A DNA stretch of 64,000 nucleotides, taken from the IMG/VR virus record IMGVR_UViG_2844225640_000006, positions 8,495 to 72,494 of that record; one strand, 5' to 3'. Origin of the DNA: a virus (taxonomy: Duplodnaviria; Caudoviricetes). Within the stretch, counting starts at the first letter, position 1. The number at the start of each line of letters is the position of its first letter. Below, in pieces: positions 2,921-40,208 of the stretch. The notes under the pieces are model-generated. The model was given only the letters and a program-made list of their open reading frames with translations. It did no database searches and was not told the origin of the DNA. Made by a program: the position numbers and the translations under genes.

Positions 2921-3919
2921 CTAAAGCTCCGCGTCTAATCCATACACCCTGCCAATTATAAAGGCGTCCCCTGCCGCTGCTGACGTGATTGTTATGCGAC
3001 CACCATAAGGACTGGGGTTATCAAGGACGTTATTATTTATGTTTGACGTACTGCCTGCACTAATCAAGGTAGCGGTCGGAGTTGCCTGCATCTCGGGCCA
3101 GTTCAACGAATTATGGGCAAACTGTCCTGATGCTGTCGAAATGAAGCGGACGTTTGCTTGTACCCTTTGATAATACCGCTGACACAATGCCAACTCCTGC
3201 TGGATGTGGCGCGGCGAAAATGGGTCATCTTCGGCAGTGACGTCCCCTTCGACAAGAGACACCCGGGCAATCTCGATTGTGCCAGATTGCACCCCGACCC
3301 CTTCGGTCAAAGCGTCATAAGATGAACCACCCGAGAAGATGAAATTAAGCTGTAGGCTGTTATCGTAATTGGTGCCGAGGATCAGATCATCGATTGCCGG
3401 CACGTCGACCACATGGGTGAACTTCTGCCATGTCCTGGCCATCGTGTGTTTTTTGCCTGCGAAAGATGCCGAGGGGGACGGAGTTCCGCCCGTCCCAGGA
3501 ACTCGATAAAATGCTGAAGCCATCTTCAGCCCGGACAACGAGGCACGAGCCCAAAACGAAAGCGTAAAGCGCCGACCCGCATAAGCCCGAAGCCCCTCCA
3601 CCCTCTGATATGCGGTGACAACATCGCCAGACACGGCACCGCCTGCAAAGGTCACCGAAACATAGCCAAGCCCGCCGAGAGGCTTCCCCTCGTGAGGATC
3701 GCTGCCGCCGGGTAGGAACTTCCCCTGCAAAACCGTCATGGTGCTGCCGGATATTATAAACCCCCACCGATCAACCGAGTGGTAGCCGTCCAAGGTCTGC
3801 GATGATCCGCGCTGCCATATATCAAAGTCGCCATTGATGATCTTGTTGCGATACGCTCCAAGGTCCGCCGTTATCCCACGCCCTCGGCCCGCCTGCGAAA
3901 GATCGAAAGCTTTACTCAT
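2921..3919 (-). CDS. Short tail fibre / receptor-binding paralog
   Basis: RNKIINGDFDIWQRG, ELALCQRYY and terminal DAEL shared with 4477-6642. Confidence 0.8.
   Translation of the reverse strand: MSKAFDLSQAGRGRGITADLGAYRNKIINGDFDIWQRGSSQTLDGYHSVDRWGFIISGSTMTVLQGKFLPGGSDPHEGKPLGGLGYVSVTFAGGAVSGDVVTAYQRVEGLRAYAGRRFTLSFWARASLSGLKMASAFYRVPGTGGTPSPSASFAGKKHTMARTWQKFTHVVDVPAIDDLILGTNYDNSLQLNFIFSGGSSYDALTEGVGVQSGTIEIARVSLVEGDVTAEDDPFSPRHIQQELALCQRYYQRVQANVRFISTASGQFAHNSLNWPEMQATPTATLISAGSTSNINNNVLDNPSPYGGRITITSAAAGDAFIIGRVYGLDAEL
3198..3266. repeat. 69-bp exact direct repeat, copy 1 (copy 2 at 4826-4894)
   Basis: Identical DNA encoding RVSLVEGDVTAEDDPFSPRHIQQ in both fibre genes. Confidence 0.9.
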
Positions 3920-14401: not shown

Positions 14402-16588
14402 TTACTTGGCGGTGCCTGCGTTCTTGTACGCGAAGCGATAATCGGTCAGGCCAACACCGAAGTCGTGAGCCAGCGTGTACTCGACGCCTTCAACGTCGAA
14501 GCCGAGACGCTCGTTCGTACGCGGGGTTTCCGAACCGAGCAGGTGCAGGTAGTGGATACCGCGCCCCATGGTCGACGCCGCATCAGCAAACAGGAACCAC
14601 GCCTTGGTGTTCAGAGCATCAATGCGATGCTCATAGACCGGCTGGATCGAGCGGATTGCCTGCGGGACAACTTCCGCCGTGGTGGTCGGAACGGTAATAC
14701 CGGTGATCAGCTTCTGAGCAACGGTTTCGTTGTCAGCGCCGACGAAGAGGTACTTCGGCGTAACATTGATGGATTCGCCGTCGATGTTCTTCTGCTTGCG
14801 GAATTCCAGGCGAGCCGCTTCAAGGGAAGCCTGATCGATCGCGCTGCCGGTAGAGGCAAGGTTCTTATGGTCCGTGTGGAACAATGCCTTGCCGTCCTTC
14901 AGCTTCAGGACGTTATCGAGGATCGCGCCCCATACAATATCGCCTTCGAGCTTGGCTGCCTTCATGCCCCAATTGGCGACGAGCTGCATGAATGCGTTCA
15001 GCTGGTCGTTGATCAGCATTTCACGGGTGAACCCGATCTTGCGACCGTACGACTGGAGCTTCATGCCTTCTTCGGATTCTTTCACCGTGCCGGACTTGAA
15101 CTCGCCGTGCTCGTTCTTCGGCAGCAGGTCAGGAGCGGAGCCGATGTCGAGCACCTTCGTTTCACGGAAGTCGGAGAGGACCGTCCGGGTTGCGAAGAGC
15201 TGGAAGGTGTTTTCATACAGGCCGTACGCATTGAGAAGCGTCTGCGTCGTGATGTCCTGCAGAATGATCGGGAAGTCCGACGTGCTGTGCAGAGCGCGCT
15301 GAGCGACGTCGTGCATCGAACCACGGGTGGACTCACCGCGAGCACGCAGCAGTTCCTTGGCGATGTCCATAGTCGACATGGCACGCCATTCACGAGCGCC
15401 GTCTTCGAGTTTCGTGACGACGTTGTTGCGATGCAAGATCGCGTTTGCCACCATGCGGCGCATGGTTTCCTGAGCATCCTGCATTCCGCGGGTCTCCACG
15501 ACAGGGAAGGTTGGAGCCTGGTTCTGGCGCTCGACCATCTTGTCGAACAGCGCGTTGCGGAAAGCTTCCACATCCGTGCCGCCGTCAACAGCCGTGCGAA
15601 CCATCTCGTCATTGACTTCGAAGCCTGCCGTGCGGGCAAGGTCATTGATGTCCTTGACGCGCTTGCGCTCAGCGGCAACGGCAGCGCGGGACTGCTCGGC
15701 TACTTCACTCTGACTGACACCGGCCGGCTGCGTTACCGGAGCTGGCTGCTGTGCAGTGCGGGTCTGGACGGCCTCGGCTGCAGCGCGGGCGGCCGCATCG
15801 TCAGCTTCCTTGCGCTGCTTGTCTTCCTCGTCGTATGCGGCGATGAGGCGAGCGCGCAGTGCGTCGTCGGTTTCGCCTTCGTTGCGGGAAAGACCAGCGC
15901 CGAGGGCCAGAGCGTCGAGCTTATCGCCGTTAAAGGACTTAGCTGCATCGCGCTTATTCATGGGTGTTTTCTCCGTGAGAGGTGCGGCCTCGGCCGCGTC
16001 ATGATTTTCCTGGCGAACCAGAACTTTTTCGACGTCCTTGCCAGTCGGCTCGGATCGAGAGATGGCCTCGGCATCCGCCGGTACGGGGACGATGGACAGC
16101 TCCATCGGTTCCCAATCGATGGCCCGGAGGATAGGCAACTGCCCGTCCGAACCTTCGGTCTTTTCGTAGCGGTGGATCTTGTAGCCCACCGAGATCGAGA
16201 GCGGATGTCCGTCCCGCAGATCCTGGAGGATCGCCTCGGCCTTTGCATTGCGTGAGAGCTTGATCAGGGCGTAGCCGCGACCATTCTCGATCCTCACGCT
16301 GCTCGGAATGACCGTGCCGAGACGTGAGTCCATGGACCACTGTTCGTGGGTATCGAGCAGGGACATGGCGTTGAAGCGGTCCATACGGATCGCCTTCTTG
16401 TCCACGGCCAGCTCTTCCATGTAGTAGCCTTCATCCCAGGAATACCGCTTGACCTTGGCGCCGGTTGTCCAGCAAACCTCGACCGTGCGGTCTTCCTCGT
16501 TGAAGGAATCCGAGCGCACCTCACACGCCGCGAAGGGCTTGGGGATGCGGATCTCTTTCTCAAGAGCATCTCTAAGGGCTTTTGGCAT
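14402..16588 (-). CDS. Prohead protease / major capsid protein fusion
   Basis: LLDTH, ISVGY, WEPMELSIVPVPAD protease motifs, linker, then HSTSDFP capsid; GGAGG SD before ATG at 16588. Confidence 0.9.
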   Translation of the reverse strand: MPKALRDALEKEIRIPKPFAACEVRSDSFNEEDRTVEVCWTTGAKVKRYSWDEGYYMEELAVDKKAIRMDRFNAMSLLDTHEQWSMDSRLGTVIPSSVRIENGRGYALIKLSRNAKAEAILQDLRDGHPLSISVGYKIHRYEKTEGSDGQLPILRAIDWEPMELSIVPVPADAEAISRSEPTGKDVEKVLVRQENHDAAEAAPLTEKTPMNKRDAAKSFNGDKLDALALGAGLSRNEGETDDALRARLIAAYDEEDKQRKEADDAAARAAAEAVQTRTAQQPAPVTQPAGVSQSEVAEQSRAAVAAERKRVKDINDLARTAGFEVNDEMVRTAVDGGTDVEAFRNALFDKMVERQNQAPTFPVVETRGMQDAQETMRRMVANAILHRNNVVTKLEDGAREWRAMSTMDIAKELLRARGESTRGSMHDVAQRALHSTSDFPIILQDITTQTLLNAYGLYENTFQLFATRTVLSDFRETKVLDIGSAPDLLPKNEHGEFKSGTVKESEEGMKLQSYGRKIGFTREMLINDQLNAFMQLVANWGMKAAKLEGDIVWGAILDNVLKLKDGKALFHTDHKNLASTGSAIDQASLEAARLEFRKQKNIDGESINVTPKYLFVGADNETVAQKLITGITVPTTTAEVVPQAIRSIQPVYEHRIDALNTKAWFLFADAASTMGRGIHYLHLLGSETPRTNERLGFDVEGVEYTLAHDFGVGLTDYRFAYKNAGTAK

Positions 16589-18134
16589 TGCTGCCTCCGG
16601 TGTTGGAATCGCCTTCCTGGACCCACTGAGACTGGCCTTGCGACGTGACCTTGCGCGGGTCACTGTCGAGCACGACCTTACTCTTCGTCTTATCGACGCT
16701 CTGGTTCCATTGATCGATTTCATTAAGGACTTGCTGCGGATCGCGACCGGTTGCAGCGATGACATCCTGCATGGAACGCTTGCCCATACGGACCTCGGCT
16801 AGATCAGCGCGGGCATCATCAAGGCGAGTGATGCTCGCCACTTCTGGCGGAACCCACTCGACCTCTTCATTCCACGTTTTCGGGATGGACCCGTCCAGAA
16901 TTGCAGCCTGGATAAACCAGTTCCAGATCTTCTGAAGCACCATCGGAATGATGAAGTGCCACTGAACGATCTCCACGAAATTCTGGTATGCCAGTAGGCC
17001 AAGCTTGCCAGAGGCGAAGTTGGCCTGACTGAAATCGCCGGTCATGATTTCGTACGGCATGCGAACGCCAGCTGCGATACTGCGCTGACGTGTGCGGATA
17101 TAAGCTTCAACGCCTGCCGAGATGGCCGGGCTATTGAACTTGATGTCCTTGCCGCCACGCAGCACACCGAACATTCCCGGCTCCATTCTTTCAAATGGGA
17201 AGCCGTAGATGTCCGTGACGCCGACGGGGTCCGCCTTACCCGCTGTCTCGTCGAGGCCGATATTCGGATCGCTTTCGTCGACATCCTCGTCGCCGGGGAT
17301 CACCATGCCGACCATGCAGGACTCGACCTTCTTGCGGATGTTCTCTGCAAGCTCGTAATCCTTCAGGTCGCGGATCTCATTCATCACCGAGTGCAGCCAA
17401 GGCACACCGTGCACCTGATTGTTCTGCGGCTCGTACAGGTGAGCGATCTCGTTTTCTGGAATGAACTTGCTCACCACGCTGTCGAGCCCGCCGGCCAAAT
17501 ATGACAGGCCCGATTTCGGGTGATCGTTGAACATCCAGTAGCCGCGGCGGTTGCCGACAGCATCGAACTCGACGCCCTGAATAATCCGGTTGCCGGGGTT
17601 GCCCGGCGGGACGCCCTGTTTGGTCCAGTCGCAATACTCAGATTCCAGGATCTGGAGCTGAAGAGGGACGGGGAACCCGTCTCCACGACTGCGGACACGA
17701 CGGCGAACGTAGACCTCGCCGTCCTGAACCATCATCCGGGCCATCAGGTAAACGCCGCCGTCGAAGTCCAGACCGGTGCCGGAGAAGCAAACCTTCTTCC
17801 ACTTATTGAACAGCGACATCACCTTCTCGTCTTTGACGCGAGGGGTAATGCCGAAGCCAACGAAGTTGTCGGCGTGCTTTCCTACGATCGTTGTCGCGAG
17901 CGGATTATTGCGGACAAGCTCTCTCGATCGATCCCGGAGGGTCTGACCTGCTTTTCGGATTTCAGCATCCGCTGTGCCCGATACAACGTTGATGCCTTTA
18001 GCAAGGCGTCCGGTTGACGCCCCCTCGTATGAACGAGCACCATCCAGGATCTCCATCCGTCGTCTGTGAGCAGCGCGCGCCGCTCCAGCCCTCGGGTTGA
18101 AATACCCGATGGCCTTATCCAGAAGGTTCGCCAT
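16572..18134 (-). CDS. Portal protein, lambda family
   Basis: LRDRSRELVRNNP, GVEFD, TGDFSQANFAS. Confidence 0.93.
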   Translation of the reverse strand: MANLLDKAIGYFNPRAGAARAAHRRRMEILDGARSYEGASTGRLAKGINVVSGTADAEIRKAGQTLRDRSRELVRNNPLATTIVGKHADNFVGFGITPRVKDEKVMSLFNKWKKVCFSGTGLDFDGGVYLMARMMVQDGEVYVRRRVRSRGDGFPVPLQLQILESEYCDWTKQGVPPGNPGNRIIQGVEFDAVGNRRGYWMFNDHPKSGLSYLAGGLDSVVSKFIPENEIAHLYEPQNNQVHGVPWLHSVMNEIRDLKDYELAENIRKKVESCMVGMVIPGDEDVDESDPNIGLDETAGKADPVGVTDIYGFPFERMEPGMFGVLRGGKDIKFNSPAISAGVEAYIRTRQRSIAAGVRMPYEIMTGDFSQANFASGKLGLLAYQNFVEIVQWHFIIPMVLQKIWNWFIQAAILDGSIPKTWNEEVEWVPPEVASITRLDDARADLAEVRMGKRSMQDVIAATGRDPQQVLNEIDQWNQSVDKTKSKVVLDSDPRKVTSQGQSQWVQEGDSNTGGSNAKSP

Positions 18135-21985: not shown

Positions 21986-22473
21986 GGCCACGGGGTCTAA
22001 CCCATTGATATGTAATGACATTTGGCGGCGTCTCACGTGGGCGCGCATGAGGCGGGCACGTGGGCGCATGGGTAGGCGCGTGGGTGGCGTGCACGTGGGT
22101 GCGGGCATAGCGCGCCATGAGCGGGCAGGCATGGGCAGGCGCTGGCATGGCGTAGGGTAGGGCAGACGCCTTCCGGCTTCGCCTTCGCTTCGCTCTGCTA
22201 GTCCTGTTAGCGTATGTGGAATGTGGCTATGTGCACCATGCGCGGCGTCCGGCGTCTGGGCCGTACCTTATCGCCGCTGGCAATAATGGCTTATGGGCAT
22301 TTGTTTGACTCGCCGATTTGAGTCCACGCAAGGGGAAAAGTGAAAAGCCTATCCGCTTTGCACCATAGCCAGCGCCCGCCACCTATCGGCCGCATGTGCG
22401 GTTGACAGCCTATGACGCGGCCTTCCTGCCACCATGGCCCGGCCTGTTTTTTGGGAGATTTGGCGGAAATGTA

Positions 22474-26331: not shown

Positions 26332-27117
26332 ATGAATGCCGCCCTGCCGCTCATTGTGAGCCTGAATTGCGGGTGTTTCTTCCGTGGTCGGTTCCTGATC
26401 GAGACGCCCGAATGCGAAGAGCATCGCAAGCTCGACAGCCTCGACGACGAACCGACCGAGTTCAAGTTCGACCAGCTGTCCGACCGAGCGAAAGAACGCG
26501 CTCGCGAGAAATTCCGCGACGGCTATCTCAACTATGATTGGTGGGATTCTGTCTATGACGCCGCCGTTACCATCGCCGAAATGATGGGCATAGAGATAGA
26601 TGGCACCGCGCGGCAACCATCAATACAGTTCTCCGGCTTCTGGTCGCAAGGTGACGGCGCGTCGTTTTCAGGGCGCTGGACCCCATTGGCCGATCCGCTC
26701 GCCTCGCTCAACAAGGTGATGGAATACGCGCCACTGGACAAGGAACTGCATTCACTCGCCTTCGATCTGGCGTTGCTTTCCGAAGGATGCCGCGATCTCA
26801 TTCCCAATGCCTATGTCCGCGTCACCAACTCTGGATATTATTCACACTCCGGCAGCACGCATTTCGACATTGACCTGCCGCTCCCCGACAACATCGACGA
26901 GGACAACGAACTGCAAGTCATGGTCTATGAAGCCTTGCTCAAGGCTCGCGATCTGGACTTCGACTCATTCGAGGACCGCATCAAGGCAAGCCTGCGCGGC
27001 TTCATGGACTGGATATATGACCAGCTTGAGACCGAGCATGACTGGCTCATGTCCGATGAAAACATTGACGAGGCGCTCGCCGATTACAACTTCGATGAAG
27101 AAGGAGAGTTGCTTTGA
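26332..27117 (+). CDS. Acidic mobile-element protein (family often labelled antitoxin-like; function uncertain)
   Basis: FDQLSDRAKERAR, DWWD, FSGFWSQGDGASF motifs. Confidence 0.6.
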   Translation: MNAALPLIVSLNCGCFFRGRFLIETPECEEHRKLDSLDDEPTEFKFDQLSDRAKERAREKFRDGYLNYDWWDSVYDAAVTIAEMMGIEIDGTARQPSIQFSGFWSQGDGASFSGRWTPLADPLASLNKVMEYAPLDKELHSLAFDLALLSEGCRDLIPNAYVRVTNSGYYSHSGSTHFDIDLPLPDNIDEDNELQVMVYEALLKARDLDFDSFEDRIKASLRGFMDWIYDQLETEHDWLMSDENIDEALADYNFDEEGELL

Positions 27118-27326
27118 TAGCCGAGTTCTCAACCTATCTGCGCATCTTTGACGTGACCACGTTTGTCTCCGCCGCACAAGAACGAGCCAGAAACGAAGGC
27201 GTCGACGAGAATGACGTCAAAGAAATGTACAACGAGTCCAACTTGGACAATTGCCTCATCATGTTGCTCGATCCATCCACGCTTCCCGGTTGCGAAATCC
27301 TCGAAAGTAACGCCGAGATTGCCTGA
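27114..27326 (+). CDS. Hypothetical protein
   Basis: AGGAG SD, coupled TTG start. Confidence 0.55.
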   Translation: MIAEFSTYLRIFDVTTFVSAAQERARNEGVDENDVKEMYNESNLDNCLIMLLDPSTLPGCEILESNAEIA

Positions 27327-27362
27327 CACCCCGCCAACTATGGCACCACAACGGAGACTCCC

Positions 27363-28268
27363 GTGAATATCATGACCAATCCTCAATCCGTTTCCTCGGT
27401 CCTCGCCAGCCGCGCGATGATTGTTTCCCTGTCCATCTCGCAATGGTCAGGCCGTCGCCTTGACCGGCAGATCACCGACGAGGTCAACCAGAACCACGGC
27501 GCTGCCGCCGACGCTGGCCGCTACAACAAATTGCTCCTCCCGAAGGAAGCATTGGCGGAAATCGTATCCATCGTCGGCGAAACCCGCTCGGACTTCCTCA
27601 AACGCACCTTGCCTTGGATGGACAACGGTAGCCGCATCATGGCAAGCGATGCATATTTGCAGCATATGTCATGGGTGCGCGGTCAGGTCGCCAAGTTCGA
27701 CCGGGCTGTCGACAAATTCCTCGCTGACTACCCGCAATATGTGGCCGATGCCCGTGTCCGCCTGAACGGCATGTTCAAGGACGACGACTACCCCGACGCT
27801 CAAATCTTGCGCAGCAAGTTCGGCGTTGCCTGCAAGGTTCTTCCGGTCCCCACCTCGGAAGACTTCCGCGTGGACATGAGCCAGGCACAAGCTGACCGCA
27901 TCCGCGAGGAGATCGAACAGCAAGTCTCCGACGCCACCACGGAAGCGGTGCGTGATGTTTACCGCCGCGTGGCAGACGTCACAGGACGAATGGTCGAAAG
28001 GCTCAACGCCTACAAGCCAGCCGGTCGTCCGGGTGACAAGACGGAAGGCGTGTTTCGCGACAGCCTTGTCGAGAATGTGCGCGATCTGATTAGCGTCTTG
28101 CCCGCGCTCAACATCATTGGCGACCGCGAGCTTTCCGCCATGGTCGAACGGCTCAAGCCATTGGCCGAGCACAATGCGTCGACCCTGCGCGATAGGCCGG
28201 AGATCCGCCGCGACGTAGCCGATGAGGCTCAGAAAATCCTCGACAGCGTCTCCGGCTTCTTGGCCTGA
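27363..28268 (+). CDS. Helical protein, DUF3150-like
   Basis: LSISQWSG, KLLLPKEAL, TLPW, YPD motifs; same operon as MoxR/vWA genes. Confidence 0.55.
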   Translation: MNIMTNPQSVSSVLASRAMIVSLSISQWSGRRLDRQITDEVNQNHGAAADAGRYNKLLLPKEALAEIVSIVGETRSDFLKRTLPWMDNGSRIMASDAYLQHMSWVRGQVAKFDRAVDKFLADYPQYVADARVRLNGMFKDDDYPDAQILRSKFGVACKVLPVPTSEDFRVDMSQAQADRIREEIEQQVSDATTEAVRDVYRRVADVTGRMVERLNAYKPAGRPGDKTEGVFRDSLVENVRDLISVLPALNIIGDRELSAMVERLKPLAEHNASTLRDRPEIRRDVADEAQKILDSVSGFLA

Positions 28269-28280
28269 GACAAATAGAAT

Positions 28281-28494
28281 TGCAGGAGCGAGGCGCCCGC
28301 TCCTGCATTTGGCGTGGCATGGCTTGGTAGGGCGCGGCGGGGCAGCGCATGGCAGGCATGGCATGGCGCGGCGTGGTATGGCTCGGCTTGGCGCGGCAGG
28401 CTAGGCGCGGCTAGGCGAGGCGCGGCGAGGCAAGGCGCGGCGAGGCCGGGCAGGCTCCCACCCAAAAGCCGCCGCTCTCTGAAAAGGGAGCGGC
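28281..28494 (+). ncRNA. GGY-NN pentamer array 1 (three units: 8, 8, 10 pentamers) with flanking hairpins; candidate guide RNA
   Basis: 5-nt periodic GGC/GGT+NN from 28311 to 28457; GGCA delimiters at 28351, 28395, 28449; 10-bp 5' stem 28281-28307; GAAA-loop stem 28471-28494. Confidence 0.75.
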
Positions 28495-28581
28495 ACCTCA
28501 AAGTTCTCCTCTTCACCGGGGAGCCTTTTGAGGTGTCAGAACGGCACTACGAACCCAATGCAATCATGCATCCAAGGAAAC

Positions 28582-29265
28582 ATGTTCATGGCAAAAGCAG
28601 CAACCAAAGTCGAAACCGGAATCACTCTTCCGAAGCTCAACATCCAGCTCATGGAAGTGGTGGTCATCGGCGACTCCCCGCTCATCGTCCACGCTTGGTC
28701 TGAAAAGGCCAAGAAGGAAATGCTGGACAAGCAGTTGAAGGTAGCGAAGGGCGCTCGTGAAGCGAAAGACCCTGTCGCAGACTTCCAGAACACTATGTAT
28801 CGCTTCGAAGACGGCGGTCACGGCTTCCCGTCCATCGCCTTCAAGGCGGCAGCTGTCACCGCTGGCACATCCGTTGCGGGACTCACCAAGATCGCAGCGA
28901 GACAGGCGTTTCATATGCTCGGCGAGAACGCCGACATTGCCGGTGCTTTTGATGGGGCGCAGTCCCGCACGAACCTCGTGCGAATCCTCGGCTCCGAACC
29001 CCAGATGCGTGAAGACATGGTCAGGGTCGGAATGGGCACGGCAGACATCCGCTACCGTGCGGAATACCCGGATTGGCACGCAAAACTGCTCGTTCGCTAC
29101 AATGCAAACGTGCTGTCCGAAGCACAGATTCTCAACCTCATCAACGTGGCAGGCTTTGCTGTCGGCGTCGGCGAATGGCGCCCCGAAAAGGACGGCAATT
29201 ACGGCATGTACCATGTCGCCACCGAGAAGGAACTGAAGGCGCTTGGTGTGCAATCACCGGGCTGA
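28582..29265 (+). CDS. Stand-alone Cas7/RAMP-like protein
   Basis: VVVIGDSPLIVH, FPSIAFKAA, and C-terminal Gly-rich loop GVGEWRPEKDGNYG in RAMP order; AAGGA SD. Confidence 0.7.
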   Translation: MFMAKAATKVETGITLPKLNIQLMEVVVIGDSPLIVHAWSEKAKKEMLDKQLKVAKGAREAKDPVADFQNTMYRFEDGGHGFPSIAFKAAAVTAGTSVAGLTKIAARQAFHMLGENADIAGAFDGAQSRTNLVRILGSEPQMREDMVRVGMGTADIRYRAEYPDWHAKLLVRYNANVLSEAQILNLINVAGFAVGVGEWRPEKDGNYGMYHVATEKELKALGVQSPG

Positions 29266-29271
29266 AACAAT

Positions 29272-29422
29272 ACAGGGTCGCGTTGCCATCGTGGCCCTGT
29301 TTAGGCGAGGTATGGCAGGCAAGGCAGGGCTTGGCTGTGCGAGGCAGGGCGCGGCGGGGCAAGGCCGGGCAGGCTCACCCACCAGCGGCCAAGGGGCAGC
29401 ATTCAACCGCCCCATTTCTTTT
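29272..29422 (+). ncRNA. GGY-NN pentamer array 2 (one 10-pentamer unit); candidate guide RNA
   Basis: Periodic 29304-29376; GGCA at 29314 and 29368; 5' stem 29272-29300; 3' GGGGC/GCCCC stem plus T run. Confidence 0.75.
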
Positions 29423-29448
29423 CAACAACCAACAGAGGAGTAGCTGCA

Positions 29449-29994
29449 ATGGTAAAGATTGCATCTTACGGCTTCGCAGAGGGTTCCCGTTTCCAGAAAG
29501 GCGCGAATACTTCCGCCCCCGAACTGGTCGGTGAACACCTTGAGACTATCCGCAAGGCGAAAGACGGTAAGCTCACACCCGACGACGTGGTGGCCGACGC
29601 TCGTAATCCCAACTCTCCGCTGCATTCGTTCTTTGAGTGGGACGATTCAGCAGCAGCTCATGAGCACCGGCTTCGGCAGGCTCGCCAGCTGATCCGCACG
29701 ATCGTTGTGCGCTATCAGGAAGTCGAGTCCAAGGAACCGATACGGGCCTATGTTAATGTCCGCTCACCCAACAGTGACAATGGGAATGAACCGGACAGCG
29801 ATGAACCACGTCAGTATTACACCGACACGATCGAAGCGCTCTCTGCCCCTGACATGCGAAGGGCCGTGCTTCTCCGGGCAAAGTCCGAGCTTGACGCTTG
29901 GCGCAAGCGATATGCCGACCTCGAAGAATTGTCCATCGTCGTGCGGACCATCACCAAGATGTCCGAAAAAGTCGGCGAACTGGCTGATGCTTGA
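29449..29994 (+). CDS. Partner protein of the RAMP-like locus (phage hypothetical)
   Basis: LTPDDVVADARNPNSPLHSFFEWDD..A..HRL.QARQLI motif; GAGGAG SD; flanked by arrays 2 and 3. Confidence 0.75.
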   Translation: MVKIASYGFAEGSRFQKGANTSAPELVGEHLETIRKAKDGKLTPDDVVADARNPNSPLHSFFEWDDSAAAHEHRLRQARQLIRTIVVRYQEVESKEPIRAYVNVRSPNSDNGNEPDSDEPRQYYTDTIEALSAPDMRRAVLLRAKSELDAWRKRYADLEELSIVVRTITKMSEKVGELADA

Positions 29995-30010
29995 ACCCAA
30001 ACAAATAATT

Positions 30011-30118
30011 GGCGTGGTGGGGCAGGCAGGGCTTGGCATGGCAGGGCTTGGCTTGGCCCGGTGCGTCTCGTTTCGGCAGGCAAACACGGGGATTCGTTCG
30101 CGGCTCCCCTTTTCTTTT
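30011..30118 (+). ncRNA. GGY-NN pentamer array 3 (one 10-pentamer unit) plus terminator; candidate guide RNA
   Basis: Periodic 30011-30083; GGCA at 30021 and 30075; GGGGA..TCCCC-TTTTCTTTT terminator 30088-30118. Confidence 0.75.
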
Positions 30119-30147
30119 CAGCAATCATGCAAACTAAGGAGACGAGC

Positions 30148-30561
30148 ATGAGTGTGCGCAATCTTCCATCGCCTGTTCGATTCCTCCTCATCCCGGTACT
30201 CGGCGACATCAAAGAGGAACGGTTTACGGTTGCGCCCGCCACGGTGGTTCCCCGTGCCAAACTATTGGAGCATGTGCGGACGTTCTTCGACGAACCAATC
30301 GAGCGCGTGAACGTGCTCTATCGGGGCGAGTACCGCGATATGTTCGTCGGCGAGACGTCGGCCATCAACGGTCGCCACATCCGCAATATCCGGGCGACCG
30401 AAGTCTACCGGGCAAATGCGCTGGAAAATCACTGGCGTCTCAATTCACCCGACCCGACAAAGGCGAAGCCTATCGATTTGTCGTGGACACTCGACCCTGA
30501 AATTCTACCGGCCATCTCTGGTCCGGCGGTTCTGTTCCCAGATTATCAAGTGTGGGAATAA
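30148..30561 (+). CDS. Hypothetical protein
   Basis: AAGGAG SD, ANYA hairpin. Confidence 0.65.
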   Translation: MSVRNLPSPVRFLLIPVLGDIKEERFTVAPATVVPRAKLLEHVRTFFDEPIERVNVLYRGEYRDMFVGETSAINGRHIRNIRATEVYRANALENHWRLNSPDPTKAKPIDLSWTLDPEILPAISGPAVLFPDYQVWE

Positions 30562-30578
30562 CCCCGAAAGGAAACCCC

Positions 30579-30758
30579 ATGTTCATCGTAGCGTGGTCCG
30601 TCAATCACGGCGGCAACAACATCGAAGATCATTGGATCGTCGCTGAGACACAGAAACAGGCAGACGCCGAAGCTGCAAAGCTGCAAAAGATCGACAACCT
30701 GCACTGTTGGGCCGTCTCTGAAATCAAAGCAGGCTCCGAGCCTCACTGGCTCTCGTAA
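30579..30758 (+). CDS. Hypothetical protein
   Basis: AAGGA SD. Confidence 0.55.
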   Translation: MFIVAWSVNHGGNNIEDHWIVAETQKQADAEAAKLQKIDNLHCWAVSEIKAGSEPHWLS

Positions 30759-30800
30759 CTCTCAACATCCCGCCAAGCATGGCAAACACGGAGAACTTCT

Positions 30801-31802
30801 ATGAACCTCAAGTCCGCAACGACTCTGCTCAACCACTTCATTGACGCCGACATTCCGGCATTCATGTGGGGCCCTCCCGGCGTCGGCAAGTCCGCTTCGC
30901 TGCATCAGATTGTGACCGAGCGTAAATGGGGAATGGTGGACTTCCGCGCTTCGACCCGTGACTCGGTGGCGTTGATGGGCCTGCCTGATATTTCCGGCGA
31001 GACCACCCGCTGGAAAGTGCCGGACGAATTTCCGCAGGCCGAACGTGACGGCGAGGAAGGCATCCTGTTTCTCGACGAACTGAACGCCGCGCCACCTTCG
31101 ATGATGGCGGCAATGTTTGGCCTGGTCCTTGACCGCAAGGTCGGCGACTACGTGCTGCCCAAGGGCTGGCGCGTAGTTGCGGCTGGCAATCGTCAGGCTG
31201 ACCGTGCTGCGGCACAGCGTATGCCTACCGCTCTCGCTAACCGCTTCGCTCACATCGACGTCGATGCAGATACGAGCGCCGGACATGACAATGTCCACGT
31301 CGAATACTTCAATCAGATCGGCGTTGATCCGCAGCTCATTGCCTTCCTTCGGTTCCGTCCGGCACTGATCCATTCGATGCCGAAGAATGATGAGCGTGCG
31401 TTCCCAACGCCCCGTTCGTGGGAACAGGCGGCGAAGATCCTGAATCTTCCGACGGCACTCCGCCTGCAGGGTGTATCCGCTATCGTCGGTGAAGGCGCTG
31501 CGGCTGAACTGGAAGGATTCCTTCGTGTTTACCAGAACTTGCCTTCGCTAGATCTGGTACTCGCCAATCCGAACAGCGCGCCTATCCCGGAAGACCCGGC
31601 GGCTCGCTTTGCAATCTCCGCTGGCCTTGCCCGTAAGGTTGATGAGCGGTCTTTCGACAACGGCATGGCTTACATGCAGCGCTTGCCTCGTGAGTTCGAG
31701 ATTATGATGTGCGTCGATGCGGTGCGTCGTGAACCGAAGCTCAGCCATACGCAGACGTTCACTTCGTGGGCCATGAGAAACCAAGACGTCACTCTAGGCT
31801 GA
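30801..31802 (+). CDS. MoxR-like AAA+ ATPase
   Basis: GPPGVGKS, LFLDE, AAGN, ALANRF, PTPRSW. Confidence 0.9.
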   Translation: MNLKSATTLLNHFIDADIPAFMWGPPGVGKSASLHQIVTERKWGMVDFRASTRDSVALMGLPDISGETTRWKVPDEFPQAERDGEEGILFLDELNAAPPSMMAAMFGLVLDRKVGDYVLPKGWRVVAAGNRQADRAAAQRMPTALANRFAHIDVDADTSAGHDNVHVEYFNQIGVDPQLIAFLRFRPALIHSMPKNDERAFPTPRSWEQAAKILNLPTALRLQGVSAIVGEGAAAELEGFLRVYQNLPSLDLVLANPNSAPIPEDPAARFAISAGLARKVDERSFDNGMAYMQRLPREFEIMMCVDAVRREPKLSHTQTFTSWAMRNQDVTLG

Positions 31803-31806
31803 TGCC

Positions 31807-32139
31807 ATGGCAGAAATCCGCGCCATCTTCGGCCCTTACAAGACGGAAGAACAGACCTCGCGCATCACTTGGTTCTTCTCCGGCGTCCGAGCGGACGGGG
31901 AGTTCACGGCGTGGTCTCTCCGTTTTCAATTCGATACGCGGCGCTATACGTGCCGCGTCATCAAGAACAAGCAGGCAGCAAAGTATGCCGCGTCCATAAG
32001 TCATAAAGACTTGTTCAGCCTCCCCGAAGCAGCGCGGTCGGAAGTCAGTTGTGGCCGCGTGACGGACATGCTCAAGGCCAAGCTTTCACCAGAGCAAATC
32101 GCTCGGGCTACGGCGCTGGCTATACAATACAGGAGGTGA
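31807..32139 (+). CDS. Hypothetical protein, paralog A
   Basis: Shares IR..FGP and LK.KLSPE.IARATAL with the next gene. Confidence 0.65.
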   Translation: MAEIRAIFGPYKTEEQTSRITWFFSGVRADGEFTAWSLRFQFDTRRYTCRVIKNKQAAKYAASISHKDLFSLPEAARSEVSCGRVTDMLKAKLSPEQIARATALAIQYRR

Positions 32140-32519
32140 TGATGGCCATCATTCGCAGGGTCTTCGGTCCCTTCCACCCTGAACACATCCATCCGGGCAC
32201 GCAGGCTGAGGAGCTGCGATGGCATTTCATCGGCATCAAGGACGACAAGACGACAGCACACTGGACATTGGTCTTTGACCCTCGCAAGCGAACTTATCGG
32301 GTCAACAACAATACCAGCAGCGGCGGCTTGATTGGCCGCAGCCGAAAGGCATTGATCGCCCAAAAGATAGATCCGGGTGTCAATTGTGAGACTGCTCACC
32401 CCGACGCCTGGCTCGACGACTCTCCAGTCATGGAGGGCACCATCACCAGCATCCTGAAATCGAAACTCTCACCAGAGGATATTGCCAGGGCGACCGCGCT
32501 GGTAATCGCAAGGAGATGA
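32139..32519 (+). CDS. Hypothetical protein, paralog B
   Basis: AGGAGG SD; motifs shared with paralog A. Confidence 0.65.
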   Translation: MMAIIRRVFGPFHPEHIHPGTQAEELRWHFIGIKDDKTTAHWTLVFDPRKRTYRVNNNTSSGGLIGRSRKALIAQKIDPGVNCETAHPDAWLDDSPVMEGTITSILKSKLSPEDIARATALVIARR

Positions 32520-32522
32520 ATC

Positions 32523-32816
32523 GTGCTGACTACCGACGTCATCATGAACAACTTCAGGAAGAGCGACCACGCTGACAATCGCTGGAGCTTTGCTCCGCTT
32601 CCCGAAACCGTTCTCAACACGCACCTTTACTACCTTTCGTTCATCAAGCAGGAGCGGCGGTTCATGCTGTCTCGAAAGCAGATCGTGCCCTTCATCCCGA
32701 TCGAAGATGACGAACTCCTGCAGGCGTTCAAGGCGACACTGCATGCAGACGAAGTGGCTGCGTGCATGAGATCCACTCTCGATCAGGGCGTCGACCCGGA
32801 TGACATTCCATTCTGA
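32523..32816 (+). CDS. Hypothetical protein ending DDIPF
   Basis: AGGAG SD; SSB-like C-terminal DDIPF. Confidence 0.55.
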   Translation: MLTTDVIMNNFRKSDHADNRWSFAPLPETVLNTHLYYLSFIKQERRFMLSRKQIVPFIPIEDDELLQAFKATLHADEVAACMRSTLDQGVDPDDIPF

Positions 32817-32831
32817 TACACGGAGGCCAAC

Positions 32832-33989
32832 ATGAAAACCGAAGACAAGATCCTCGCCGCACAGACGTCGCTACTTTGGGACCAGCCATTCTTTGGCGTC
32901 CTCATGCTCCAGCTTAAAAAGGTGCGGGTGGATGACCCGAAGAAGGTCGATACGATGGCGACAGACGGCCGTCATCTCTTCTACCACCCGCCCTTCGTCG
33001 ATGAGCTGAAGAAGGACGAGCTGGTTTTCGTGCTGGCCCATGAGGTCATGCACAACGCCCTGGAGCATCACATCCGACGCCAGTCCCGTAAGCCCGGCCG
33101 CTGGAACGATGCCTGCGACTACGCCATTAACGGCGAGCTGGTCGAATGCAAGGTCGGCAAGATGCCAGAGCGCGGCCTGCTCGAGGCGCGCTTCACCGGT
33201 CTTTCAGCCGAGGAGATCTACCGTATCCTCGACGACGAGAACAACGGCGACGACTCCGCTGAAGGGCAGGGCGATACCGGTGGTTGCGGTGGAACGATGG
33301 ATGGCTGCGCACAGCACGACGAGGCAGCCAAGGCCGAGCTGCGTGCCGAGATGCAAACGCAGATCAGGCAGGCTGCCATGACCGCCAAGGCTGCGCAGGC
33401 TGGTAAACTTCCGGCTGGCGTGCAGCGTATCATCGACGAGCTGCTCATGCCGAAGGTCGACTGGCGGGCTGTTCTCCGCCGCTTCATCGACGAGTCCAGC
33501 ACCCGTGATTTCTCATGGTCGAGGCCGAACCGTCGCCTGCTTCCGCTTGGTCTGGTTACTCCGGGCACAGTTTCGGATGGCGTCAGCCATATCGTGATCG
33601 CGGTTGACACATCTGGCTCGATCGACGAGCCCACGCTCAATGCCTTTGCTGCCGAGGTGCGGGGAGCATTCGAGGAAGGCTCTGTCGACAAGATCGACGT
33701 GGTCTACTGCGATGCAGCCATCAACCACACAGAGCAATTCGAAATGGGCGACGAGCTGTTCATCCGTGCGGTAGGCGGGGGCGGCACTCGCTTCTCGCCT
33801 GTCTTCGAATGGGTGACCGAGAAAGCAGCCGACACCAAGCTGGTGATCTACCTAACAGACTTGCTCTGCAATGACTTCGGCGACGAGCCGCACTGCCCGG
33901 TTATCTGGGCGCACTATGGAACGAAGAGCCAATTTCAGCAGCTCAGCCCCAACGTTCCGTGGGGTGAGTGCGTACACATCGAGCCTTAG
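32832..33989 (+). CDS. DUF2201-type metallopeptidase-vWA protein
   Basis: TMATDG, HEVMH, N.ACD.AIN, MIDAS DTSGS, GGGGTRF, YLTD. Confidence 0.9.
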   Translation: MKTEDKILAAQTSLLWDQPFFGVLMLQLKKVRVDDPKKVDTMATDGRHLFYHPPFVDELKKDELVFVLAHEVMHNALEHHIRRQSRKPGRWNDACDYAINGELVECKVGKMPERGLLEARFTGLSAEEIYRILDDENNGDDSAEGQGDTGGCGGTMDGCAQHDEAAKAELRAEMQTQIRQAAMTAKAAQAGKLPAGVQRIIDELLMPKVDWRAVLRRFIDESSTRDFSWSRPNRRLLPLGLVTPGTVSDGVSHIVIAVDTSGSIDEPTLNAFAAEVRGAFEEGSVDKIDVVYCDAAINHTEQFEMGDELFIRAVGGGGTRFSPVFEWVTEKAADTKLVIYLTDLLCNDFGDEPHCPVIWAHYGTKSQFQQLSPNVPWGECVHIEP

Positions 33990-33998
33990 GAGGAATAA

Positions 33999-34634
33999 TT
34001 GCCCATCTTACTCGACCTGACTGGCCAGCAGTTTGGCCGGTTGATTGCTATAGCCAGAGATCCAACCGCACGCCCTACACGCTGGTCATGCAGATGTGAG
34101 TGCGGCAACACGAAAGTCGCTGCCACGAACGACCTCAGGCAGGGGAAAACGAAATCCTGCGGCTGCTTGAGAGTTGAAGTGACCGGGGGAAAGAACCGCA
34201 CCCACGGTCTGCGACAGCACCCCCTCTACGATGTATGGCAAAGCATTAAAGACAGGTGCCTAAATCCTAACAATCCTCAGTTCAAAGATTATGGCGGGAG
34301 AGGAATAAAAATCTGCGATGAATGGGCGCACGATGGCGCTGCGTTCATCGCATGGGCAGAAGCCAACGGCTACCGCGCCGGCCTCATCATCGATCGCGAG
34401 AATAACAATTGGGGATACAGCCCCGAGAATTGCCGGTTCGTTACGCGGAAGACCAGCAACCGCAACAAGCGGAACACCAACTACATCGACACTCACCTCG
34501 GTCGCATGATGCTGGCTGAAGCGGTCGAGATCTCCGGCTTGGGCAGGGACACCATCCGACGCCGCTTAAAGTTGGGATGGCCCGCATCAAAGATCCTTCA
34601 GCCCGCCCGAGCGATGAAGAAGAGCAGCAAATAA
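33999..34634 (+). CDS. HNH-type homing endonuclease-like protein
   Basis: DLTGQQFGRL, C.CECG, SCGC, YGGRGI.IC.EW, IDR.NN..GYSPENCR. Confidence 0.8.
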   Translation: MPILLDLTGQQFGRLIAIARDPTARPTRWSCRCECGNTKVAATNDLRQGKTKSCGCLRVEVTGGKNRTHGLRQHPLYDVWQSIKDRCLNPNNPQFKDYGGRGIKICDEWAHDGAAFIAWAEANGYRAGLIIDRENNNWGYSPENCRFVTRKTSNRNKRNTNYIDTHLGRMMLAEAVEISGLGRDTIRRRLKLGWPASKILQPARAMKKSSK

Positions 34635-37491: not shown

Positions 37492-37583
37492 CCACCCTCC
37501 GTCACACCTCAACACCCACTGCGATGGCGCTCCTCTCGGGGCGCCATATCGGGGCGTGTTGCCCTTTTTCAACGGAGAACAAT

Positions 37584-38549
37584 ATGAAAAAGTTTAGCAT
37601 CATCTTCATCGCATCCCTCGCTCTTTCGACCTCGTCTGCCCTTGCTTCCGATGGCTGCACCGGCAGTGCCACGCTTATGAAGTGGCTTCAGGGTTGCCGC
37701 GATCTTCCGAGCAGCGTGCGGGTTATCGACCACTCCGGTGGCGACCGCACCCCAGGCGCTAAGAGCTCCTCGGGTGGTAACGGTGCAGCCAGTGGCGGAG
37801 AGTCCAGCGCCAATGCTGGCGGCAATTCCGGCGGAACCAGCGGCACTACCAACAACGGCAACTCCGGCGGCTCCAGCAATGCTGGCAACTCTGGCGGCGG
37901 CAGCAACGGCGGTTCGAACTCCGGCAGCACTGGCGGCGGCAGCAACGGCGGTTCGAACTCCGGCAGCACTGGCGGCTCCACGGGTGGAAACACTGGCGGC
38001 TCCGGCAATTCCGGTGGCGATACTGGTGGTAACTCCGGCGGTGATACCGGTGGGAACAACGGTGGAAACACTGGCGGGGATACCGGCGGTAACACCGGAG
38101 GCGGCAGCGACAACGGCGGCGGCGACACCGGTGGCAATACCGGCGGAGGTGACAACGGCGGTGGCGGTGACACTGGCGGGAACAACGGCGGTGATAATGG
38201 CGGTGGCGACACTGGCGGCGGTGACACTGGCGGGAACAACGGTGGCGACAACGGAGGGGATAATGGTGGCGACACCGGCTCCGGCGGTAACAACGGCGGC
38301 CACAATGGCGGAGACCACACCGGCAACGGCCCAGGTAATGGCAATGGCAACGGCGGCAACCACGGCAATGGTGGCGGAAACAACAACGGCTCCGGTCCAG
38401 GTTCGGGTAACGGCGGCCACAACAACGGCAATGGCAACGGTAACGGTAACGGCCATGGCAACAGTGGTGGCAATGGTCACGGCAATGGCGGTGGCGGCAA
38501 TGGAAACGGAGGCGGTAATGGCGGTGGCGGAAAGGGTGGCCGCCACTAA
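37584..38549 (+). CDS. Secreted Gly/Asn/Asp/Thr-rich low-complexity protein
   Basis: Signal peptide MKKFSIIFIASLALSTSSALA, two Cys, then GG(D/N)(T/N) repeats; GGAG SD. Confidence 0.7.
   Translation: MKKFSIIFIASLALSTSSALASDGCTGSATLMKWLQGCRDLPSSVRVIDHSGGDRTPGAKSSSGGNGAASGGESSANAGGNSGGTSGTTNNGNSGGSSNAGNSGGGSNGGSNSGSTGGGSNGGSNSGSTGGSTGGNTGGSGNSGGDTGGNSGGDTGGNNGGNTGGDTGGNTGGGSDNGGGDTGGNTGGGDNGGGGDTGGNNGGDNGGGDTGGGDTGGNNGGDNGGDNGGDTGSGGNNGGHNGGDHTGNGPGNGNGNGGNHGNGGGNNNGSGPGSGNGGHNNGNGNGNGNGHGNSGGNGHGNGGGGNGNGGGNGGGGKGGRH
37891..37968. repeat. 39-bp tandem duplication (2 copies)
   Basis: CTGGCGGCGGCAGCAACGGCGGTTCGAACTCCGGCAGCA twice. Confidence 0.85.
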
Positions 38550-38630
38550 CCCATAATCCACACACAACAAGCGGGGCACTTCGGTGCCCCGTCCATCATC
38601 CCGCCAAACATGGCAACCACGGAGATTGAA

Positions 38631-40208
38631 GTGAGCACACTCGTACCCACTGCAACGATCGAACAACTCTGCGCTTATCGCGATGAAGCAATTCGTTTGT
38701 ACGAAGAAGCATTTGAGAAAATAGCCGAAGCATCGACCGCCGTCACGAAGGCAGGCTTGATGTGGGAGGCCGCTTCTCCCGGTAAGCCGAGCCGCCATTA
38801 CGACGGCGCCGAGGAAGTCAAGGAGTTCTTCCGGGCCGTCAACCTGCCTGACCGTGACCGCTATCTGCGCACCGCGCGCCGTCTCATCGACGTTACCGTA
38901 TGGACCCACGTCATCGACATCGCTGGCATCGAACAGCTCATGGACATGCAGGCCAAGAACGAGCTGCGCGACCAGATGAAGTATGTCCCGGAGCGCACCG
39001 GCCGCAATGGTGAGATCATCAATCAGGATGAGATCGACCGCATGCTGCCGCCCGTCACCCCGGAGAACATCTACGCCACGCTCGAGCGATTCCAAGGTGA
39101 TGCCGAGATGATCTTTCGGCGCGGCATCGTCAATGTCTTCACGAAGTTGGACCGTCGCTTCCGTTCGCACGACGGATTCAAGGTCGGCTCGCGCATGATC
39201 ATCGATTACCTGCTGCGCAGCAGCACGCATCTGTATGGTGATCGCGCAGATATGCTGACCGATGTAGAGCGAACGTTCCTCGTGCTCGACGGCAAGTCAG
39301 CGAAGGCCAGCTATGCGGGCATCGTCGAAAAGATCAACCGCGAGAACCCAGGGAAATGGAATCAAGCAGTGCAGTTTGAGGTGGTTTCCGAATACTTCAA
39401 GGTCCGTATCTTCAAGAACGGCAACGCCCATCTCTGGTTCAGCCGCAAGGATCTGGTGAAGAAGGTCAATGAGATCCTGGCCGACCACTACGGCGAGGTG
39501 ATCGGCGACGGGATGACGAAGGAGGAAGATCCTCTCAAGAACATCAAGACCACACCGGCTCGCTACTTCGGATTCTACCCCACGTCAGACGCGACTGCCG
39601 AAAAGGTTATCAGCCATGTACGCCTGCTCCAGCGAAAGGACGAGCCCCAGATACGCATCCTTGAGCCGTCGGCCGGGACCGGCAACCTTGCCCGACGCTG
39701 CCTTAGCACCCCGGCTGCCCTCGATAAATGGTCCGGCGGCCGCGACCGCTACATAGATCAGTACCGCATGGACAATGTGGTCGACTGTGTAGAGGTGCAG
39801 CCGCACCTAGCTCACCAACTCGAGGCACAGGGCGTCTACGGCCGCGTAGTCTGCGCCGATTTCCTGTCGCTCCGGCCGGATTCGTCTCGCCTCTATGACA
39901 GAGTAGTCATGAACCCGCCCTTCGACCGGGAACGGGACATCGACCACGTCGTGCATGCCATCCAGTTCCTCAAGCCGGACGGGCAGCTCGTCGCCATCAT
40001 GTCGGCCGGGACTGAGTTCCGGCAGACCGCCAAGTCCATAGCCTTCCGCAAGATGATGGAAGACATGGGCGCAGAATGGACTGATCTACCGCCCAATTCC
40101 TTCTCGGACGTGGGCACAAACGTGAACACCGGGTTCATCTCGGTCTGGAAGAACGGACGTAAGAAAACCGGCCGCTACGACAGACCGACTTGGCCGAAGG
40201 TGGGATAA
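38631..40208 (+). CDS. DUF4942-like domain fused to an adenine DNA methyltransferase
   Basis: FKNGNAH, FYPT, LEPSAGTG, MNPPF; GGAG SD favours GTG at 38631. Confidence 0.85.
   Translation: MSTLVPTATIEQLCAYRDEAIRLYEEAFEKIAEASTAVTKAGLMWEAASPGKPSRHYDGAEEVKEFFRAVNLPDRDRYLRTARRLIDVTVWTHVIDIAGIEQLMDMQAKNELRDQMKYVPERTGRNGEIINQDEIDRMLPPVTPENIYATLERFQGDAEMIFRRGIVNVFTKLDRRFRSHDGFKVGSRMIIDYLLRSSTHLYGDRADMLTDVERTFLVLDGKSAKASYAGIVEKINRENPGKWNQAVQFEVVSEYFKVRIFKNGNAHLWFSRKDLVKKVNEILADHYGEVIGDGMTKEEDPLKNIKTTPARYFGFYPTSDATAEKVISHVRLLQRKDEPQIRILEPSAGTGNLARRCLSTPAALDKWSGGRDRYIDQYRMDNVVDCVEVQPHLAHQLEAQGVYGRVVCADFLSLRPDSSRLYDRVVMNPPFDRERDIDHVVHAIQFLKPDGQLVAIMSAGTEFRQTAKSIAFRKMMEDMGAEWTDLPPNSFSDVGTNVNTGFISVWKNGRKKTGRYDRPTWPKVG

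Follow-up and report, generated by a model that had tools for sequence, protein, structure and literature searches.

A probable VIPR cassette with staggered guide-RNA arrays in a variable cargo slot of a prophage

The DNA analysed here, referred to as the window, is a stretch of 64,000 nucleotides from a provirus record of IMG/VR (IMGVR_UViG_2844225640_000006), which comprises 72,494 bases and is 89% complete according to CheckV. The provirus encodes a large terminase, a head-protease fusion, tail proteins, DnaB, a primase, a Dda-like helicase and an integrase, and its nearest named relatives come from Rhizobium-like soil bacteria. The locus of interest holds two genes, vipr and an accessory gene, together with arrays of pentanucleotide repeats of the type GGYNN and several hairpins (Table 1).

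Table 1. Features of the vipr locus (positions are those of the window; vrRNA and terminator assignments are predictions)
Feature	Position	Strand	Details
Candidate VIPR cassette	28269-30147	+	1,879 bp; three vrRNA arrays, vipr, accessory gene; limits from sister-phage alignment
GC-rich hairpin	28281-28307	.	5' edge of cassette, just past stop of upstream gene; fold of 28269-28312: -19.2 kcal/mol, z -3.8
vrRNA segment U1	28311-28355	+	9 GGYNN units, one degenerate (CGCAT); GGCAG end
vrRNA segment U2	28355-28399	+	9 perfect units; first G is last G of U1
vrRNA segment U3	28399-28453	+	11 perfect units; GGCAG end, then GC
Structured stretch	28454-28545	+	three hairpins, from array U to vipr; fold of 28449-28545: -47.8 kcal/mol, z -5.0
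vipr gene	28582-29265	+	227 aa from ATG 28582, stop 29263-29265; probable start 28588 (225 aa)
Short vrRNA-like segment D1a	29304-29318	+	3 units; GGCAG end
vrRNA segment D1b	29318-29372	+	11 units, one degenerate (TGCGA); GGCAG end, then GC
Hairpin GGGGC...GCCCC, then U-rich run	29393-29422	+	from fold; terminator-like end of putative D1 transcript
Accessory gene	29449-29994	+	vap-like, 181 aa, phrog_15946; ribosome-binding site GAGGAG 7 nt upstream
Short vrRNA-like segment D2a	30011-30025	+	3 units; GGCAG end
vrRNA segment D2b	30025-30079	+	11 units, two degenerate (GTCTC, GTTTC); GGCAG end, then GC
Hairpin GGGGA...UCCCC, then UUUUCUUUU	30088-30118	+	from fold; terminator-like end of putative D2 transcript

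The open reading frame of vipr is genuine. Its second ATG is the more plausible start, because AAGGAA lies 8 nt upstream of it and the ESM Atlas record of the protein begins at that residue. The product belongs to none of the families in Pfam, NCBIfam or PADLOC, and PHROGs assigns it to phrog_4652, a family annotated as of unknown function (E 6e-32). Querying the PDB by sequence returned a single match, chain D of entry 36pp, "SUSP1 Vipr protein" (E 0.0014). When we used a profile made of the query and 79 of 150 listed representatives, namely those aligned in one near-full-length stretch, the same chain was matched with an E value of 3.2e-13 over residues 3-189 of 202. A pairwise comparison (blastp) with the copy in the SUSP1 genome (agp039, NC_028808.2) gave 20.8% identity over 202 amino acids at an E value of 2.4e-8. 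The alignments thus support the vipr product as a full-length homologue of SUSP1 Vipr and a relative of the RAMP proteins.

In the cryo-EM study of SUSP1 Vipr the protein is described as an early-branching RAMP that is built of RRM core, thumb and G-loop (10.64898/2026.04.26.720927), and full-length homology to this solved protein predicts a RAMP fold of these parts and a helical bundle for the Vipr of the window. The residues by which SUSP1 Vipr reads the GGY part of its RNA, H17, R138, D177, W178 and R179 (10.64898/2026.04.26.720927), align with H37, R159, E198, W199 and R200 of the window protein. Only position 198 differs, and the change from aspartate in SUSP1 Vipr to glutamate in the window is conservative. 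In the family alignment of 80 sequences R159 and R200 are invariant (80/80 each), position 198 is E or D in all 80, and H37 and W199 are found in 67 and 56 sequences, respectively.

The same alignment explains the motifs from which a RAMP-like motif order had been proposed in the original prediction. All the motifs quoted there occur in the translation. SPLIVH ends in H37, the counterpart of H17 in the RRM sheet of SUSP1 Vipr, and FPSIAFKAA aligns with the region of helix 1 around E71/M72. RYR holds R159, which is aligned with the thumb residue R138, and GVGEWRP corresponds to the G-loop residues D177-W178-R179. The roles of these four motifs fit the SUSP1 Vipr alignment, and it is important to note that the RAMP motif order could be recognised from the sequence alone in a protein left unnamed by all curated profile libraries.

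In a collection clustered at 90% identity, 7,544 of 8,000 scored candidates reach an E value of 1e-3 or better. Clustering at 50% identity leaves 3,535 clusters with E <= 1e-3, of which 2,153 have E <= 1e-10 and 430 have E <= 1e-30. Because the family is of this size, the motif match of the window protein is far beyond chance. The closest named relatives, at about 77% identity, are from Rhizobium, Agrobacterium, Mesorhizobium and Sinorhizobium. Further members are encoded by phages of Mycobacterium, Gordonia, a cyanobacterium and Pseudomonas, and by genomes or metagenome-assembled genomes (MAGs) labelled Rhizobium, Chloracidobacterium, Spartobacteria, Lachnospiraceae and Aeromicrobium.

With Cas7 of Class 1 CRISPR systems, Vipr has in common the RRM core, the thumb and the glycine-rich loop, and both form helical guide-RNA filaments with one protomer per repeat and periodic flipping of bases, as described in the VIPR preprints (10.64898/2026.04.26.720920, 10.64898/2026.04.26.720927). 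On the other hand, the guide of a VIPR system is a code of 5-nt repeats and not a contiguous spacer, and the window protein has no match to Pfam RAMPs (PF03787) or DevR (PF01905). Judged by these profiles, the vipr product falls outside the curated Cas7/RAMP families. The Pfam profiles for Cas1, RAMPs and DevR/Cas7 had no match anywhere in the 72.5-kb provirus record, and the same profiles did match in control genomes. Tandem Repeats Finder reported no CRISPR-like repeat-spacer array. The gene therefore stands outside any CRISPR-cas operon, as had been stated at the outset.

The protein had originally been called an orphan Cas7/RAMP-like protein. A RAMP relative without a cas operon it is, but it is no functional orphan, since it has guide arrays of its own and a partner gene that accompanies it in 64 of 69 related loci. 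The same two features argue against the alternative role put forward with that name, a stand-alone Cas7-like decoy that would poison type I or type III CRISPR complexes of the host as an anti-CRISPR. In favour of a decoy is that the protein is a phage-encoded RAMP relative with no cas genes nearby; however, the retained residues are specific for GGY RNA, as opposed to the repeat handle of a CRISPR system, the protein did not match the Cas7 profile of any host system, and the phages and genomes in which the family occurs represent hosts with differing CRISPR types. We regard the decoy role as extremely improbable.

The repeats around vipr form seven segments on the same strand, grouped in three arrays, and five of the segments are 9-11 units long; 9-16 units are typical of VIPR systems, with four as the minimum. 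Each of the seven terminates in GGCAG, which is followed by GC. Neighbouring segments have the last G in common, so that the junction GGCAG|G is an overlap of one base and amounts to a slip in register. In the sense of the published definition (GGCAG|G with a 1-base overlap, legend to fig. S18 of 10.64898/2026.04.26.720920), the arrays of the cassette are by sequence a staggered vrRNA array, because their segments are joined by precisely this overlap. The window contains six perfect tracts of at least five GGYNN units on the plus strand and none on the minus strand, compared with a first-order Markov expectation of 0.005 per window. None of the tracts is more than 300 nt away from vipr or the partner gene. 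Tandem Repeats Finder also places arrays with periods of 5, 10, 15 and 20 at the same three places. The period-5 arrays, which flank the gene on both sides, had gone unmentioned in the original prediction. Another stretch, at about 22020-22165, is rich in GG with a loose period of 5 and has a decayed appearance.

The regions next to the arrays are structured. None of 200 shuffled sequences folded as stably as the stretch that connects the upstream array with vipr, and this stretch is possibly either a 3' tail of U3 or the leader of vipr. A terminator scan placed the stem of the hairpin at the 5' edge of the cassette on the minus strand. The terminator-like hairpin downstream of D1b, found by folding, is absent from the list of the consensus terminator scan. 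An Rfam scan of 28200-30250 gave no family, and a promoter scan gave no sigma-70-like site. Among public sequencing runs, none contained more than 30% of the sampled words; the runs labelled as RNA are assembled contigs and may be DNA.

To judge how general the arrangement is, we can turn to 69 related loci with 37-80% identity, five from genomes and 64 from viral contigs. A plus-strand tract of at least four units is present in 59 of them, and several of the ten others end just past the genes. When the window is included, tracts of at least five units number 143 on the vipr strand vs six on the opposite strand. The 739 units in 102 unique tracts have entropies of 1.89 and 1.97 bits at the two N positions, and the third position is C in 71% and T in 29%; since the search pattern presupposes GG and Y, the entropy of NN alone is informative. 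The GGCAG end occurs in 52 of the 102 unique tracts, and in 45 of the 102 the tract continues with the 1-base overlap. GGCAG|G junctions are found in loci labelled as MAGs of a Spartobacteria, a Lachnospiraceae and an Aeromicrobium, and in Mycobacterium phage Brocalys.

A homologue of the accessory gene adjoins vipr in 64 of the 69 related loci. The other neighbours in the window, a DUF3150-like gene, an AAA_5 ATPase gene and a DUF2201 gene, are each found in none of the 69. Residues H59, F62, W64, A69 and R74 of the accessory protein are invariant. Neither the single sequence nor a profile matched an entry in Pfam, NCBIfam, PADLOC or the PDB, and structural comparison gave weak winged-helix-like matches with TM scores of 0.33-0.39. 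The protein is 36% identical to gp46 of Mycobacterium phage Brocalys (E 1e-22) and is dissimilar to SUSP1 Vap1 (blastp E 1.4; 1.0 bit with the A2 profile). By extrapolation, the accessory protein probably assists on DNA. VIPR systems have been divided into seven published types, with SUSP1 as type II (10.64898/2026.04.26.720920), and by elimination among these the cassette should belong to a type with a non-enzymatic vap.

One of the closest known systems is the type II VIPR of SUSP1, which consists of Vipr (PDB 36pp), vap1 and four vrRNAs. Both Vipr proteins are homologous over nearly their full length with the GGY-reading residues kept, both systems have GGYNN guides on the strand of vipr, and both are two-gene loci in a phage genome. 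The systems also resemble each other in the presence or absence of the module among related phages, as a deletion of 1,114 bp comprising vipr-vap1 is described for relatives of SUSP1 (10.64898/2026.10.15.759431). The differences are considerable. The window Vipr is merely 20.8% identical, the accessory gene is unrelated to vap1, and the vrRNAs of SUSP1 stand apart from one another and each carry a long structured tail, whereas the segments of the window abut by the 1-base overlap with no tail between them. Moreover, the arrays of the window lie at three positions, before vipr, between both genes and after the second gene.

Another close system is Brocalys, a staggered-array VIPR (gp45-gp46) with the same GGCAG|G junction, in which gp45 is 39% identical to the window Vipr and gp46 corresponds to the accessory protein. 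In Brocalys the tracts are upstream of gp45 and none was seen in the stretch examined after gp46, while most near relatives of the window locus have arrays only downstream of the second gene, in both cases unlike the window. Taken at the level of sequence, the locus has the hallmarks of a VIPR system. It is a further example of a very recently described kind and would not surprise a specialist who knows the work of 2026.

The limits of the cassette can be read from a sister phage (L104), which is 93-97% identical and lacks exactly these 1,879 bases. It aligns to 27331-28269 (93.6%) and 30146-30410 (91.3%) of the window; in the sister phage these blocks are directly adjacent, and at the junction the stop codon of the upstream gene overlaps the next start codon (ATGA). 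Contigs from two public runs connect 28258 to 30146 with only TCTC between them (85% likeness), and in a third public run 916 different letters occupy this slot (85% likeness). Because it is missing from the sister phage, bridged in two runs and replaced by other cargo in a third, the complete system is a discrete insert in a variable cargo slot. Thus, one and the same gene-to-gene slot is empty in the sister phage and carries a different cargo in another relative. None of 16 loci that have the flanking module contained vipr, the partner gene or any tract. The GC content of the cassette (0.59) is not different from that of its flanks (0.577). Since five complete VIPR-bearing viral records have only vipr (about 600 nt) in common with the provirus, the module moves between unrelated phages.

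Another reading takes the cassette for an inactive remnant that the prophage carries as passive cargo. Degenerate units occur in three of the five long segments (one each in U1 and D1b, two in D2b), two further segments have just three units, and the stretch around 22020-22165 looks decayed. However, both open reading frames of the cassette are intact, each with a good ribosome-binding site, the 9 units of U2 and the 11 units of U3 are all perfect, and the full set of GGY-reading residues is present. In addition, internal degeneracy is frequent in vrRNAs according to the methods of the VIPR preprint (10.64898/2026.04.26.720920). A remnant is, in our estimation, very improbable.

We propose that the insert is a complete VIPR (Viral Interference Programmable Repeat) cassette by which the prophage silences the DNA of competitors, and give this reading a probability of about 0.88. 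It would be a self-contained system, because it has guide-RNA arrays of its own, a syntenic partner gene and the retained GGY-reading residues. In the published model, Vipr polymerises with one protomer per GGYNN unit of the vrRNA, hides GGY and presents NN to double-stranded DNA, so that every third base is skipped and transcription is silenced (10.64898/2026.04.26.720920, 10.64898/2026.04.26.720927). By analogy with SUSP1, the arrays of the window would be transcribed into vrRNAs of about 45-55 nt, with maturation presumably at GGCAG|G, and Vipr would coat each segment with one protomer per pentanucleotide. G1 would be read by H37 and E198, G2 would be clamped by R159 and W199, and the pyrimidine would be held by R200 together with helix 1. 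Pairing with double-stranded DNA would fall to the exposed NN dinucleotides, at sites of the form NN-x-NN-x, every third base being skipped. Such a filament may block transcription of its target, most likely a competing phage, a satellite or a rival VIPR locus. For this clade we infer RNA expression, processing, the pairing rule and the targets.

VIPR entered the literature in 2026 as a possible ancestor of CRISPR effectors, reading DNA by a gapped code. The present locus is a compact and cleanly delimited staggered-array example of 1.9 kb, a class that the preprints mention and on which, in the sections consulted, they report no experiments. With the cassette-free sister phage as a natural isogenic control, the locus should be useful for studying the maturation of tail-less vrRNAs, the role of the second protein and the targets of a prophage-borne system.

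Candidate targets were sought with gapped patterns. Under the rule of a 1-nt skip, no site in the window reaches an NN match of at least 80%; the VIPR systems described in 10.64898/2026.04.26.720920 are likewise reported to lack self-targets. An exact scan of viral contigs gave one match for U3 and none for D1b, D2b or U2, and U3 had one exact match in metagenomes. Both are attributed to chance. The viral match (L071) lies in an AT-rich reverse-transcriptase gene and the metagenome match (L083) in an AT-rich contig, and each lacks both the final AG and a wobble phasing. The 77 guides of related loci, compared with the window and all loci, gave seven matches at 85% or above vs one in the control. 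These were rejected as targets, too, as all are 14-of-16 matches of 8-unit guides and patterns with 0-nt and 2-nt skips gave similar numbers. Cross-targets among the five whole VIPR-bearing viral records did not exceed the control (3 vs 3).

When up to two mismatches were allowed, U3 had 18 matches in the family around a Rhizobium genome (301 genomes). Some ten of these matches share one conserved motif of a host-type gene, the product of which ends in ...FAYDAEKADR, and the best wobble-phased near match, with one mismatch in 20 positions, lies in this gene. The result bears on another reading, in which a Vipr-type ribonucleoprotein has a different job and regulates genes of the prophage or the host, or binds RNA, instead of silencing DNA between elements. 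A recurrent host-type site would agree with this, as would a vap family other than that of SUSP1 and searches that gave no target in a competing element. The reversed control pattern, however, gave 18 matches as well, and the host-gene matches miss the first and last guide units, so that we rejected the gene as a target of U3. Against a regulatory job there is also the lack of any window site at the 80% level, and the locus shares its GGY-reading residues as well as its repeat code with the characterised system. We consider a different job improbable, and competitor silencing by a VIPR cassette is the reading that we prefer.

Within that preferred reading, a more specific scenario would make the cassette a portable weapon of one VIPR system against another, with an accessory protein unrelated to Vap1, with D2b perhaps aimed at the end of a rival array, and with guide ends set by the register slip GGCAG|GY. 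We regard this combination as unlikely. If the ends of the guides are set by the slip and not by a structured tail, the maturation route of the vrRNAs would be unlike that of SUSP1. As to the target, D2b matches 19 of 22 informative positions at 2139-2170 (minus strand) of a related locus (L013), where the last repeats of another VIPR array meet its tail. This lead is plausible, because 10.64898/2026.10.15.759431 describes vrRNAs directed against the vipr genes of rivals and against repeat-tail junctions, and it is suggestive only. In a 399-kb set of VIPR loci, against which five guides were tested, one of 300 shuffled guides reached the score of 19/22. The relaxed 19-position pattern of D2b has three distinct sites in all viral contigs, only one of which is located in a VIPR locus.

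The VIPR cassette, which unites vipr, an accessory gene and the GGYNN vrRNA arrays, is held in a conserved frame, the phrog_5162/DUF3150-like/AAA_5/DUF2201 module. When 16 viral loci (L104-L119), all found through their DUF3150-like protein, were compared, at least three of the four module genes occurred together in 15 of them. The slot occupied by the cassette (window 28249-30146) is filled by another sequence of 916 nt in one related genome, which was represented by contigs of the public sequencing run X1. Because of this differing occupant, the VIPR insertion site appears to accept variable cargo and to exist in three or more states: empty, VIPR or other cargo.

Discrete GGYNN arrays are also located ahead of a distant Vipr homologue in Pseudomonas phage LESphi2 (L085 660-1140, 5′ of P21_9). 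The homologue shows 32% identity across the C-terminal 68 residues. The gene 3′ of the LESphi2 homologue has no similarity to the accessory gene of the window. The LESphi2 locus looks like a different VIPR type, carried by a clinical strain as part of a prophage.

A comparison of the perfect 11-unit vrRNA segment U3 with L077 (1434-2234, minus strand) and about nine other genomes revealed matches at 19 of the 20 tested positions. The site lies in a conserved host-type gene, the product of which ends in ...FAYDAEKADR, and the skip base (the unpaired third base of the gapped pairing) falls on the codon wobble position. Since matches to the reversed-pattern control were equally frequent, we regarded this candidate target as a chance match.

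About 6 kb 5′ of the cassette, inside a long region poor in credible ORFs, there is a loose period-5, GG-rich stretch (window 22020-22165, plus strand) in which GGCAGGC is present twice. Tandem Repeats Finder detected a period-20 repeat at 22034-22084. The stretch may represent a vrRNA-like tract that has decayed or stands alone.

Among the other features of the window, the Gly-rich repeat ORF is without a PHROG match. The occurrence of one 30-nt string at two sites 1.6 kb apart suggests a duplicated segment in the tail-fibre region.

Coordinates of the flanking module and of further window features
Feature	Window position	Strand	Basis
Conserved phage module: phrog_5162 protein, DUF3150-like protein, AAA_5 (MoxR/CobS-like) ATPase, DUF2201 metallopeptidase/VWA protein	26332-34000	+	
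553-aa ORF packed with Gly-rich tandem repeats, periods 12-54	37569-39230	-	Tandem Repeats Finder
Identical 30-nt string, two copies with 1.6 kb between, tail-fibre region	3208-3237 and 4836-4865	+	
Single 787-aa ORF with a match to a fused major head and protease family	14402-16765	-	phrog_4523, E 2e-199
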